14,841 nucleotides of DNA, taken from contig JBHHXN010000130.1 in assembly GCA_046757025.1 (NCBI GenBank), positions 1-14,841 of the forward strand, read 5' to 3'. Position 1 is the stretch's first letter, and the number at the start of each line of letters is the position of its first letter. A program made the translations under genes and the position numbers. The stretch comes from a bacterium (GTDB lineage: Bacteria; Zhuqueibacterota; Zhuqueibacteria; Oceanimicrobiales; Oceanimicrobiaceae). This document shows, piece by piece, positions 1 to 7,187 of the stretch. Under the pieces are notes generated by a model. It was not told the DNA's origin, did no database searches, and worked only from the letters and a program-made list of their open reading frames with translations.

Positions 1-146
1 GTTTATCAACAGTTCACATCTGTTACTCATACCATCGTTCCTGGCTCCCCTCCCGTGTGATACTAACAGGAATTGAGTTTCCCTCACGGTTCGCTCTTTC
101 GACTATTGTCGAGGGCTTCGTTGTCCCCTGAGCTTCAGACCCTGTT
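1..146 (-). mobile_element. Probable group II intron domain I fragment, 5'-truncated, continuing beyond the window start
   Basis: Minus strand reads GGTCTGAAGCTCAGGGGACAACGAAGCC...AACCGTGAGGG...GGTATGAGTAACAGATGTGAACTGTTGATAAAC, a word order I recognise from domain I of bacterial group II introns. There is a small hairpin TCGAC-TATT-GTCGA at 99-112. No GTGCG 5' end is present. Recognised from memory, not searched. Confidence 0.6.
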
Positions 147-251
147 CTGCAGTATAACGGGTTCTCTTAGACATAGAGCAGCCTCCTTTTGGGGTTTTGA
201 ACCACCTTAAAGATAAGCCTTTTTTTGTCAAATTCCAAGAGAGGCATTACA
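142..251 (-). mobile_element. Left end of an IS3-family-like insertion sequence with the first 11 codons of OrfA
   Basis: Minus strand starts TGTAATGCCTCTC...TTTGACA at 251 (IS3-type 5'-TG end), followed by RBS AGGAGG (187-182) and ATG at 174. It encodes MSKRTRYTAEQ, typical of IS3 OrfA N-termini. The frame then runs into intron-like sequence and stops at 105-103. Confidence 0.7.
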
Positions 252-1535
252 GCGATGGCACCAAAACCATTGCCAAGCTCAATCGTTTAATTTTGAACCC
301 AACAGATCAATCGGCATTTACGGATTTTTTTTACCTATAGCCCTTGGAACTATTCTGAATTTCGCCAGGAAATCCGTCGCGCGTTAGTAAAGTGGGTTCT
401 GGGTGACAATCAAACGGCCTTGGAACCCGAACCTTTTTACATAAAAATCGACGATTCCAAAAGCTCCAAGCCCAAAACAAGTTTACATTTTGAAGTCACC
501 GACTGGCATTTCAACACCGCCGAGAACCGAGGTTACGGTTATGGCGTGGTGTTTGTTACCGTTCATATAGCACGCGGTAAACGTTCAACACCTTTGAGCT
601 TAGAACTTTACCTGCGTGAAAAAACCGTACGCCGCATCAATCGCTACCGTGAGAAAGGACGCCGCGTACCGTTCAAAACTAAATATACAATCGTCAGAAG
701 AATTTTGCAACAACTGGCACAACTGATTCCTGAAAATGTGCCAGTCTATGTTCTCTTTGATAGTTGGTATGCAAGTGCAAAACTCATCAAGTTTTGCCGC
801 CGTCACCGATGGCATGTGATTTGTGCACTAAAACGCAACCGAACCTTTCTGAAAAAAGGCAAATCTAAAATGCGGCAGCTATCTCAATGGGCCCGTTATA
901 TTAGAACCAAGGATTTCAAGCCGGTAATGGTGAAATCCTCAGACTCGTCGACCTGTTATTGGGTATGCTCCCTCAAGGGACACCTAAAGGACATCAAACA
1001 CGAAGTCTGTATAATGATTTCCAAAAGGCACCAACGGGACAAAAGTCCTGAGTTCTTCATGACCACCGACCTCTCATTGAGTGTTCAAGAAGCACTGAGT
1101 CGCTATATGCGGCGTTGGGCAGTTGAGATAGACCACTTGTACCTGAAAGTCCGGTTGGGTTTGGGCGATTTCCGCTTGCGTTCCTATGAAGGCATCTCAA
1201 AATATTTTGATCTGGTCTGTATGGCGTTAGCCTACTTGCACTGGCGAAAATTTGAAGAAAATACAGCCGACTTCAAAACTTTGAGCGATGTCATTGCCCT
1301 GCACCGCCAAGAACAGCAGGAAGCTTTTTTGCGCACTTTCTGCCAATGCGTTTTAAACCTCGGCTCTGTAGAGCAAGCACTCAACAAATGGTATAAGCAA
1401 GCGGCATAATCGCACAAAGCGCACAATTTATCAAAACATCTAGACGGGGCAAAGGGTGAATGCGCTTAAAACCAACAAATAGTCGGTTTAAATGACCTAT
1501 TTTTTTAAAGAACAATATATTTTGCCAAACTACAG
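252..1535 (+). mobile_element. IS701/IS4-superfamily-like insertion sequence, left part missing from this window
   Basis: DDE transposase remnant followed by a candidate right terminus TTTGCCAAACTACAG (1521-1535), beyond which sequence is AT-rich intergenic DNA. No matching left inverted repeat is visible. Confidence 0.7.
254..1409 (+). pseudogene. DDE transposase (IS701-like), 5'-interrupted and frameshifted
   Basis: ORF 420-1409 has IDDS, VLFDSWY and YMRRWAVEIDHLYLK motifs. The same frame extends upstream to 333 (TYSPWNYSEFRQEIRR). A second frame at 254-331 (DGTKTIAKLNRLILNPTDQSAFTDFF) joins it if one T is removed from the 8-T run at 325-332. Confidence 0.8.
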
Positions 1536-1699
1536 TATAGTTATGGAAATTGATTCCAAAAAAAGTCTCTAAAATTTCAGCAATTATGATAGTCTTAAAA
1601 TATTTTTTTTACAATTTACAGTAGCTGTTGATGATCAGTGCTCCCATGTATGAAAAGAGTCTCTCTCTGTAATCACAGTTTAACATCCTTCTTACCTAA

Positions 1700-1879
1700 C
1701 CCGGACAAGCCGGAACCAAAAAAAATATTTAATAGCGCACGCAAAGTCGCCGAGACGCAAAGAATACGCAAAGGTTTTCTTTGCAATCCCTTTCGCCTTA
1801 GCGTGAAATCTTTGTTTTTTGGGATTTGAATTTTCATTTCTTGCCAAAAAAGGACAGAATTTGACTTCTCAAATATTAA
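1700..1879. mobile_element. 180-bp non-coding hairpin element flanked by TAA direct repeats (copy 1)
   Basis: TAA at 1697-1699 (within CCTAA) and at 1877-1879. Left motif AAGCCGGAACCAAAA and right motif TTCTTGCCAAAAAA. Three internal ACGCAAAG units (1739, 1755, 1766) with complementary CTTTGC and CTTAGCGTG downstream. Boundaries inferred by comparison with the copy at 6262-6421. Confidence 0.65.
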
Positions 1880-4824: not shown

Positions 4825-6003
4825 ATGAAAAACAAAATCAGTTCTAAACTCATTTTAGCTGTTGGAAGTGTCGCCATCTTCATCATCTCGATATTTTCCT
4901 ACTTCATCGTCAATTCACAGCGCCAGGCCCTCATTTCACAAATCGAACACAATGCCAATCAATTGAGCGAAACCATCAAAAGCAGCACGAAATACGATAT
5001 GCTGCTCAACCAGCGCCAGCGTGTACATCGCATCATCGACACCATCGGCCAGCAGGAGGGTATCGAAAAAATCCGCATTTTTAACAAAGAAGGGGAGATC
5101 TTCTATTCATCGGATAAAACCGAAATTGGACAGTTGGTGGATAAACAAGCCGAGTCCTGCTACGCCTGCCATCTCGCGGATCAGGCGCTGGAGCGGTTGA
5201 CGATCCCCGAATGTACGCGCACTTTCAACGCAAAAGAAAATGAAAAGAATCTCGGCATCATCAACCCCATATACAACGAGCCCGGTTGCTGGCAGGCATC
5301 CTGTCATGCCCACCAGGTGCAGCAAAAAGTGCTGGGTGTTTTGGACGTCACCATGTCGCTGTGGAAAGTGGAGGAGCAAATCAATGCCGAACAGGCTAAA
5401 TTGGCTTTGTTTGCTTTGAGCGCCATCGTCGCCATCAGCGTTATGCTCTGGTTTCTGGTCCAAAAATTCGTCGGCAAACCGGTTAGCCAATTGGTGGAGG
5501 CTACCGGCAAAGCGGCTGCAGGCCATCTCAATTACAGGATCAAAGTCGTCACCAATGATGAGATGGGACATCTCAGTGATTCTTTCAATGAAATGACCCA
5601 AAAGCTGGCGGAAGCGCAAAGACAACTGGTGCAATCGGACAAGCTGGCTTTACTGGGCCGATTCGCCGCAGGAGTGGCGCATGAAATTAACAACCCGCTG
5701 ACCGGTGTGTTAACCTACAGCAGTTACCTGTTGAAGCGGGTCGATTTTGACGGTGAAAAGAAAAAAGCCCAGGAAGTCATCGTGCGGGAAACCAAGCGCT
5801 GCCGCGAAATCGTGAAAGATTTGCTGGACTTTGCTCGCCAGAATCCATCAAAAAAGATCGATTGTAACGTCATACAGATTATTTTGATGATTTCTGGATC
5901 GACTGTAAAATTTGTCATCATGAAAAAAAAACACCGGTTTTGGCCCAGACGTGTTCCAATTGTCATCACACCTCGCCAGCAAATATTGCGGATGAAACTT
6001 TGA
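4825..6003 (+). pseudogene. Membrane sensor histidine kinase with c-type heme motifs, lacking the ATPase domain
   Basis: TM, then an extracytoplasmic domain with CYACH (5158-5172) and CWQASCH (5287-5307), then TM, HAMP (DEMGHLSDSFNEM) and H-box (AHEINNPL). Kinase-like sequence stops near 5867; no N/G1/F/G2 boxes follow. Confidence 0.85.
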
Positions 6004-6116
6004 GATCCAAGGTGGTTATCCACAAGAATTGCTGGCAATGTCATGAAATTGGCCAGGGCGCGGAAGCCAGCGCCAATTGTGGTTTTTGCCATTCGGGCAA
6101 GAAAAGCCGGTTTTGA
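5868..6116 (+). pseudogene. Tetraheme cytochrome c3-like C-terminal fragment (82 codons, 5' end lost); not in the ORF track
   Basis: Hand translation: RHTDYFDDFWIDCKICHHEKKTPVLAQTCSNCHHTSPANIADETLRSKVVIHKNCWQCHEIGQGAEASANCGFCHSGKKSRF*. It contains four CxxCH motifs and is preceded in frame by TAA 5865-5867. Confidence 0.88.
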
Positions 6117-6169
6117 AATGAACAGGCAGGTTGCACCACTTAACACTCCTGCCTGAAAGGAGGCTGCAA

Positions 6170-7187
6170 TTGGATAGACGAAATTTTTTAAAATTAGCCG
6201 GCGCGGCTGGCACCGCTCTGGCTAGCCAGAAACTCAACGCAGAAGAGGCAGTAAAGCCTAATGCAGCGAAAAGCCGCAAACCGAAAAGCGAAATTCGCAA
6301 AAAGGAATTCCAGAGTTGGCTTGTCTATTTCAAAATCTATAGACGACGAATTTCGGTTTCCGGTTTTCGATTTTTATTTTTCTTGGCAAAAAAATGCAAA
6401 AGTTCAGAAGTAATACTATAAAGAATTTGTGGGTGTGCTGGTGGATACGACCCGCTGTATCGGCTGCCGTTCCTGCGAGAGAGCCTGCTCGGAAGCTCAC
6501 GATCTCTTCGTGCCGGATATCGAAAACGATTTGGCCCTGGAAAATGAGCGGCAGACCAGCGAAAAACAATGGACCGTAGTCAATCGTTATGAAACAGAAA
6601 AAGGGCAAGTGTTTGTCAAAAGACAATGCTTGCACTGCTGGCAGCCGGCCTGCGCCGCGGCTTGTTTGACCAATGCCATGTACAAAACCAAAGACGGGCC
6701 GGTTATCTGGAGATCCGACAAGTGCATGGGTTGTCGATTTTGCATGGTTTCCTGCCCTTTTAACATTCCAAAATTTGAGTACCATGAATGGAATCCTAAA
6801 ATCCAGAAGTGCAATATGTGCTGGGAACGGCTGCAGCAGGGCAAAAAGCCGGCTTGTATCGCAGCCTGCCCCACCGATGCGTTGATGTTCGGTATGAAGC
6901 GAGACTTGATGGAAGTCGCCCGCGTGCGGGTTTACCACCATCCCACAAAATATGTACACCAAATTTACGGAGAACACGAAGTTGGCGGCACCGGCTGGCT
7001 GTATCTGTCGGCGGTTCCGTTTGAGCAGTTGGGATTCCGCACCGATTTGGGAACCACGCCGTACCCAGAATATACCAGAGATTTTTTGTATGCGGTACCC
7101 GTCATTCTGTTTGGATTCCCAGCTTTGCTGCGGGGGCTGAGCTTTTTAACCGACAACAAAGAAGAGGAAGCTGATCAGGAAGGGTAA
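6170..7187 (+). pseudogene. HybA/HmcB-like 4x[4Fe-4S] protein with Tat signal, interrupted by a 160-bp insertion
   Basis: AGGAGG 6158-6163 and TTG 6170 give MDRRNFLKLAGAAGTALA (twin-arginine). The body (6423-7187, different frame) has CIGCRSCERAC, CLHCWQPACAAAC, CMGCRFCMVSC, CNMC...CIAAC, YGEHEVGGTGWLYLS and a C-terminal TM. Removing 6262-6421 gives a 285-aa ORF. Confidence 0.88.
6262..6421. mobile_element. 160-bp non-coding hairpin element flanked by TAA direct repeats (copy 2)
   Basis: TAA at 6259-6261 (within CCTAA) and at 6419-6421. Internal 18/20 inverted repeat at 6278-6297 and 6347-6366. End motifs AAGCCGCAAACCGAAAA and TTCTTGGCAAAAAAA. Removal restores the host reading frame. Confidence 0.85.

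Follow-up and report, generated by a model that had tools for sequence, protein, structure and literature searches.

The window (the whole stretch of DNA that was analysed, 14,841 nt) contains two short elements on the plus strand, E1 (1696..1875, 180 nt net) and E2 (6258..6417, 160 nt net, young subfamily). Both stretches follow CCTAA and end in TAA, and the spacing from TTCTTG to the last TAA is exactly 33 nt in both, as the sequence-only reading had described for stretches of 180 and 160 nt. Its left and right patterns occurred twice each in the window and in none of 300 dinucleotide-preserving shuffles; genome-wide, the left pattern occurred 28 times and the right pattern 21 times. The core repeats of both copies were also present as described, and the two cores are unrelated. 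The mobile bounds lie 4 nt to the left of those first proposed, and the C at 1695 or 6257 is ambiguous, possibly being part of E1 or E2, respectively.

E1 carries a CCGG-type left end, repeat arms of the GxxExxY type and a right end of class C. Sequence, fold and family profile placed its left end at 1696..1713 (plus strand), with CTAA followed by a GC hairpin (stem 1701-1704 / 1710-1713). The core (1739..1805, plus) consists of three ACGCAAAG units, at 1739, 1755 and 1766, facing CTTTGC-type units. The right end (1838..1875, plus) is an imperfect palindrome round an A-tract, with 35 nt from TTG to the putative cut, and TTAA follows at 1876-1879. Two other full copies, with 92% and 87% identity, bring E1 to three copies in total in the genome. 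A class C right end was fused straight to position 1696 in one contig of one run (depth 4.9). This joint may be a circular intermediate or, equally, a nested insertion. Because no empty allele of E1 was seen, its bounds were taken from the family.

The left end of E2 (6258..6278, plus) comprises CTAA and a hairpin at 6262-6267 / 6273-6278. Its core (6269..6375, plus) has 29-nt inverted arms (6269-6297 / 6347-6375) of 7-mer units that are 83% complementary. The right end, of class A (6381..6417, plus), is a palindrome round an A-tract followed by TAATA and two bases, and the target remnant ATAA lies to its right at 6418-6421.

E2 splits a gene for a Tat-exported 4Fe-4S protein. The 5′ piece (6170..6256, plus) was annotated as a Tat signal peptide (PF10518, E 4.3e-5), and the 3′ piece (6418..7187, plus) as a HybA-like 4Fe-4S dicluster protein (PF13247, E 1.1e-21). 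An NrfD-family gene lies downstream. The 5′ piece matched the N-termini of three orthologs, with 81-82% identity in the downstream part. Taking out exactly 160 nt brought back the frame and length of the three orthologs, and with E2 present the frame runs into a stop codon at the element's end. The codon at the insertion point does not discriminate between candidate targets.

A histidine kinase frame (4825-6003) ends past its HisKA domain, at about the 5870-6120 region. It adjoins an out-of-frame fragment of a multi-heme cytochrome c (CxxCH), which matches the gene upstream of the orthologs. From these coding remnants, the kinase/cytochrome fusion seems to be a deletion, and the hydrogenase-linked operon seems to be decaying. 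This decay may be why E2 is tolerated. A group II intron fragment (45-161, minus strand; RF02012, 47.2 bits against a gathering score of 34, E 2.6e-7) extends past the window start. A DDE transposase was annotated at 420-1409 (PF01609, E 6e-15), with a likely inverted end near about 1517-1537; its ends are unrelated to the E1/E2 family.

Ends, copies and hosts of the family

The left end of the family consists of CTAA or CTAG (CCAG or ATAG in other subfamilies), one base and a GC stem of 5-6 bp with a loop of three, mostly purine, bases. The right end consists of a 7-bp palindrome round six mostly A bases and a spacer of about 16 nt that ends in TAATA and two bases. The distance from TTG to the cut was 34-35 nt in every right-end class seen. 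The right ends of E1 and E2 belong to different classes, and the profile of the 6258 type misses the 1696 type; only the stretch from TTCTTG to the start of the A-tract and the spacing are common to both. The left and right hairpins are unrelated to each other, and no terminal inverted repeat was found (3 and 8 matching bases among 25 at the ends). On the bottom strand, the left hairpin has a paired closing position (G.T or A-T) in 51 of 52 distinct ends, and the top strand shows a C.A mismatch there in 44 of the 52, an asymmetry that is weak evidence because the ends are related. In IS200/IS605 elements, a guide at the foot of the hairpin pairs with the target and the end motif. No consistent guide-like covariation with the target was seen by eye across the right-end classes. 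E1, E2, the 234-nt subfamily and the minimal element had no match in Rfam 15 at the gathering score.

The longest ATG frame within the 63 source-genome pairs described below was 53 aa. The elements therefore lack coding capacity and would move in trans, in line with the earlier proposal. A TAnnAT hexamer (-10-like) arises across the right junctions of all classes, from element and target together. An outward promoter was considered and set aside, as downstream genes showed no directional bias (24 vs 22). The upstream genes of the relatives were in the same direction in 55 cases vs 33, in a related, non-independent sample.

The paired asymmetric ends, fixed spacing and unrelated cores noticed in the window belong to a real mobile family, of which 63 paired elements were found in the source genome. 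Profiles matched 81 class A right ends, 21 class B right ends and 104 left ends, with 0 matches each in the locally shuffled genome. The catalogue of right ends reached 107, including 4 of class C (the E1 type), and 63 of these had a left end within 700 nt. Element lengths ranged from 124 to 552 nt in the 54 source-genome pairs with enough flank. Twenty right ends away from contig edges had no left end within 700 nt, and left ends that lack a right end also occur.

A third subfamily, E3 (234 nt, with another core), was reached via the right end of E2. The left ends comprised 23 of the E2 and 35 of the E3 subfamily. Thirteen near-full E2 copies had 95.6-100% identity, and the mean identity was 98.3% for 10 E2 copies and 99.5% for 18 E3 copies. 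Contig depth over the cores was about 20 and 50 times the flank depth, which roughly agrees with the counts, depth being no copy number. The E1-type left end was paired with class B in 4 and with class C in 2 source-genome pairs, and a contig joining it to a class A right end was seen in three runs. The ends combine freely, and middles are swappable between the same kinds of ends.

Facing left ends occur at contig C166 and at a relative's locus (L316). A fourth class of right end, with GTAGTA before CAG/CGG, was seen in C72 (minus strand, 16227-16540) and in L315. The copy in C72 keeps the 34-nt spacing, and this class is sited in or beside GxxExxY cassette arms.

Among relatives, a blastn search for the right end gave matches in 12 out of 20 genomes within the bacterial family and in none of 20 others. 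With a degenerate pattern, 21 of the 167 genomes in the phylum were positive; they belong to four families, and the reversed control gave a single hit. The titled carrier records were candidate division KSB1, Neomarinimicrobiota, uncultured Cytophagia and 'bacterium'. The fetched loci held 123 right ends, 69 of them with a left end at 90-436 nt, in a sample whose pattern favours ATA/CTA flanks and whose loci were hand-picked from hit lists. One genome (G121) carried a dozen copies of about 91 nt (90-91 nt). A 63-nt E1-type copy lies over the stop codon of a gene in a viral contig (L365, 2960-3023, minus strand); from its sequence, the gene is probably terminase-like. Judging from the 63-nt viral and the 90-91-nt G121 copies, the ends alone appear to suffice for movement. 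Collection scans yielded short elements only, at 5 genome loci, 8 metagenome loci, and 0, 0, 5, 0 and 1 viral loci. Four of the 5 viral left-end hits had no recognisable right end, and the fifth (L261) had a possible different one, judged by eye. The plasmid records contained no match to the ends, and the only match in the phage records was 40 nt long and lay within a coding region.

Cores and GxxExxY or four-helix-bundle cassettes

The cores range from almost nothing to nested repeats, and unrelated hairpins also occur. Many contain 7-9-mers in facing arrays that resemble the repeats next to four-helix-bundle and GxxExxY genes. Such a resemblance had been proposed from the window alone, and the cores bore it out. 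The core of one relative's element (L026) matched PF13366 (E 1.1e-9) and contains an internally deleted GxxExxY gene between paired ends. Other cores hold similar GxxExxY relics, judged by eye, and the E1 core unit ACGCAAAG also flanks GxxExxY remnants inside the elements of relatives.

The longer, cargo-carrying versions that had been anticipated did not emerge: no intact cargo gene was seen inside any left/right pair. A GxxExxY or four-helix-bundle gene lay between the two ends at 0 of 60 relatives' loci, and at none of 15 source-genome loci inspected by eye. GxxExxY genes were present in 13 of 13 genomes searched. At L316 (G013:C56:6900-7700), a stop-free GxxExxY gene lies between the two facing left ends, with no right end. 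A complete element is inserted in or beside a cassette arm at L315 and in C72 of the source genome, so the cassette is here a target. Because of this insertion and the count of 0/60, GxxExxY and four-helix-bundle cassettes are best read as passengers and targets of the family.

Target sites and the base before the cut

Many copies lie inside other repeats, and paralogous empty sites were therefore available. At the C241 site, empty paralogs read TAATTC-ATAG, the filled left junction reads TAATTC-CTAA and the filled right junction TAATACT-ATAG; C precedes the cut in 7 of 7 paralogs. In the paralogs of the C51 site, ATA follows the cut in most. In C324, E3 is inserted in the left junction of another element, and its right flank is CTAA, as the target predicts. 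In C56, a frame is restored by taking out 234 nt. The comparison of filled and empty sites therefore assigns the leading CTA to the element and the right flank to the target, with no duplication.

Class A junctions read C-CTA on the left and T-ATA on the right, and the paralogous empty sites read C-ATA. ATAA follows 53 of 60 young class A right ends, and the base preceding the left end is C in 56 of 58 young copies and in 66 of the 69 copies from relatives. The relatives' elements start with CCAG in 24 of 69 paired copies, and their right flank is mostly ATA(A/G). The target information amounts to only about 5-6 bases. A TA or TAA core with a CCTAA target was dropped for class A once the empty sites showed ATA(A/G) past the cut; the two class A junctions differ, so that a TAA core at both, as first read, does not apply to them. 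In the 1696 type, most copies have CTAA on both sides. The right flank of class C was CTAA in 5 of 8 junctions read, with CTAC, CTTA and TTAA once each. Since these flanks are mostly CTAA, CCTAA may hold for the E1 type. The CCTAA target of the sequence-only reading thus gave way to N^ATA(A/G) for the two young subfamilies and may stand for the 1696 type.

One sequencing run (X3) yielded a 7,548-nt contig (depth 13.1) that spans the C56 site and skips the 234 nt of E3, with 30 nt on its short side in this one contig. The joint was not listed for the other three runs of the same study. It shows natural presence/absence of one E3 copy. The family is active now: its subfamilies are 98-99.5% identical, one copy is absent in the fourth run, and one gene is broken. 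No empty allele of E1 or E2 was found in the four runs of this one study, whose contigs drop rare variants.

The X3 allele has T before ATAA, and the filled left junction at this site has C. The majority base before the cut among paralogs was C at 12 of 24 sites and G, A or T at some, several of the 24 sites being self-matches or loose matches. One fixed single cut therefore cannot explain both the T of X3 and the C of the paralogs at the position of the filled T. Both cuts may slip by one base, the X3 allele may be an excision product, or the element may supply both bases and replace one base of the target.

Candidate mechanisms and known systems

The sequence-only reading had envisaged a recombinase or transposase gene bounded by the same ends. 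None was found at 128 enzyme loci among the matches listed (63 Y1, 15 Y2, 17 IS110, 32 tyrosine and 1 serine, from source and carrier genomes), each with at most 1.5 kb of flank and many shortened by contig ends. For HUH genes, the counts were 0 of 63 Y1 and 0 of 15 Y2 loci. The source genome, a draft of 374 contigs, had no Y2 and no TnpB match. Y1 HUH genes were present in the source genome, in every one of the 14 carriers tested and also in 6 of the 14 controls. IS110 matches were present in 9 of 14 carriers; the 5 others included a 50-contig assembly. Y2 matches occurred in 7 of 21 and 4 of 13 genomes. The absence of the enzyme gene is not established by these counts, because assemblies of this kind frequently lose multi-copy elements. 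Several candidate partners of the source genome were rejected, none being bounded by the ends: IS110 (C372), IS200-like (C146), RAYT-like (C220), XerD-like (C96), a partial integrase (C300) and a serine recombinase (C210). An end match was nearby at 7 of 93 and 2 of 30 enzyme loci, and the ones examined proved to be separate mini-elements or weak hits.

In our preferred reading, an HUH-type single-strand transposase, IS91- or PATE-like, moves E1 and E2 in trans; we give it a probability of about 0.45. The enzyme would cut the bottom strand after the target tetranucleotide TTAT, beside the A-tract palindrome, and would make a second cut there after TTAG/CTAG, immediately past the GC hairpin. 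The released strand would then be joined into a new TTAT^G site, as in IS91 and IS200/IS605. The cores would be passengers, that is, GxxExxY/four-helix-bundle cassettes, deleted relics or other hairpins that happen to lie between the ends. The unlike ends, the blunt duplication-free joint and the palindrome at each end argue for such an enzyme. The listed loci with no HUH gene between the ends, and hairpins that are unrelated to each other, argue against it. No strand bias was seen with gene direction (24 vs 22) or with contig GC skew (44/77), which is a weak test in a 374-contig draft.

The X3 allele speaks against the single-strand reading and favours a staggered double-strand cut. In that case a recombinase or transposase, IS110/DEDD-like, IS607-like serine or undescribed, would cut with a 1-2 nt stagger at the base before ATAA, and the element would bring the left C and the right T while one target base is replaced. 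This is possible but doubtful. It would cover the T of X3 as well as the C, G or A of the paralogs, despite the C at filled left junctions (56/58 and 66/69). The right junction is quasi-palindromic about three bases, and the right-end palindrome could serve as a double-strand binding site. Known IS110 and serine-type enzymes rely on the same core at either junction, which class A junctions lack. The shared core that a tyrosine or IS110 recombinase, both named in the sequence-only reading, would require is thus missing in class A; 0 of 32 tyrosine and 0 of 17 IS110 loci were bounded by the ends, nor was the one resolvase locus, and 5 of 14 carriers, the 50-contig assembly among them, had no IS110 match. 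The target of about 5-6 bases and an X3 allele of one contig with a 30-nt short side also count against a staggered cut. An undescribed class of transposase, encoded elsewhere in these genomes, is rather unlikely. It would move anything between two short ends (63 nt suffice), replace one target base and spread GxxExxY/four-helix-bundle cassettes, together with their relics, to phages and among uncultured lineages.

The GxxExxY nuclease or the four-helix-bundle protein might itself be the mobiliser, the ends being the outer ends of its cassette. Deleted GxxExxY genes inside paired ends, the stop-free gene between facing left ends and the presence of GxxExxY in all 13 genomes would fit. We consider it improbable, as no such gene lay between the ends at the 60 relatives' or the 15 source-genome loci, elements are inserted in or beside an arm (L315, C72), and some cores are unrelated hairpins or near nil. 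The prospects are also poor for a domesticated RAYT (TnpA-REP) that spreads the unit by reading the CTAG/CTAA-tagged left hairpin as a REP. The left end is indeed a short GC hairpin with a four-base tag, as are the REPs in the available text of PMC8266576, facing left-end pairs occur (C166, L316), and the RAYT-like gene of the source genome has a left end at a distance of about 190 nt. The tag is, however, CTAG, CTAA, CCAG or ATAG and not GTAG, and the unit combines one hairpin with a conserved end of another kind instead of having two inverted REPs. The hairpin beside the RAYT-like gene is a different one, judged by eye, and 60 carrier Y1 loci among the matches listed are not flanked by the ends. 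A DDE-driven MITE of the usual kind, with inverted ends lost to decay, is very improbable. The size and copy number are MITE-like, and DDE transposases occur in the genome (window 420-1409). The subfamilies of 98.3% and 99.5% identity, however, already lack inverted ends and duplications at this young age, so decay cannot be the reason. This agrees with the earlier judgement that the elements are not a classical MITE.

The family was compared with known systems. PATEs of IS200/IS605 are described as non-coding elements with no inverted ends, palindromes near both ends and no target duplication (PMC3119063). They have a short target motif, form homogeneous and heterogeneous subfamilies and often hit other mobile repeats (PMC3119063, PMC10055086). 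The family agrees with the definition in PMC3119063 in its ends, palindromes, lack of duplication, non-coding nature and target motif. Its bottom-strand target (T)TTAT also resembles TTTAT, a known IS200/IS605 target motif in the accessible text of PMC10055086. The family differs from PATEs in its unrelated hairpins, one of which abuts the end directly, in the conserved base beyond the cut and in that no guide covariation was seen by eye. In addition, no IS200/IS605 element with its ends was found (0 of 63 Y1 loci listed, in draft assemblies).

The IS91 family (IS91, IS801, IS1294) has two distinct ends, no duplication and a tetranucleotide target at one end. Its palindrome adjoins a terminal cleavage tetranucleotide that is equal or nearly equal to the target; mini-IS consisting of the ends alone move in trans (PMC13181058, in the part available). 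The present family shares this layout, with a bottom-strand hairpin and then TTAG/CTAG, vs the target TTAT. In IS91, the target is CTTG/GTTC, and the ends of mini-IS91 measure 82 and 89 bp, longer than those found here (same source). Unlike IS91, the source assembly has no Y2 gene, and 0 of 15 Y2 loci carried the family's ends.

REP/REPIN sequences likewise have a short GC hairpin with a four-base tag, many intergenic copies and no enzyme inside. As described in the text available from PMC8266576, they differ from the family in the tag, and the family adds a second, unrelated end at a fixed distance from the cut and an AT-rich target. The family also has no GTAG-tagged hairpins, and Y1 loci are not flanked by its ends. 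The bcr1 repeats are short, non-coding, mobile and linked to TTTAT, their enzyme is not known, and they are described as restricted to B. cereus (PMC6542083). By that description, the family resembles these repeats of the Bacillus cereus group as a short non-coding mobile repeat with a TTTAT motif. Swappable cores belong to the family and are not among the bcr1 features in the available part of PMC6542083. Unlike IS110/IS1111, class A junctions have no common short core, although one is possible in the 1696 type, and 0 of 17 DEDD loci are end-bounded; unlike MITEs, terminal inverted repeats and target duplication are absent.

The family works like a PATE or a mini-IS91, but none of the listed Y1 and Y2 loci had the transposase gene between its ends. 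It agrees with no catalogued type of end among those compared. Neither the family nor four end motifs as text were found in the papers searched, whose supplementary repeat tables could list such ends. After matching against Rfam, plasmid and phage records, our verdict is an undescribed family of a known kind of element. Given a minimal form of 63-92 nt and a defined target, the missing enzyme is directly screenable. If it is a known HUH protein, the family adds a new type of carrier to the PATEs. Replacement of a target base on insertion would point to new chemistry. The family also offers a concrete amplification route for the unexplained repeat-armed GxxExxY and four-helix-bundle cassettes.

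Some enzyme loci had features of their own. The IS110 of C372 (L001) stands alone on a 1,674-nt contig and has a long 3′ non-coding stretch with a repeated motif; its flank was not found elsewhere in the assembly. The IS91-family loci of relatives, rejected as partners, carried other ends. At L033, L034, L035 and L039, an integrase is paired with an IS91-type transposase between GTT(G)RACGAAGCCGC-like inverted ends, and these gene pairs apparently lie among integron-like cassettes.
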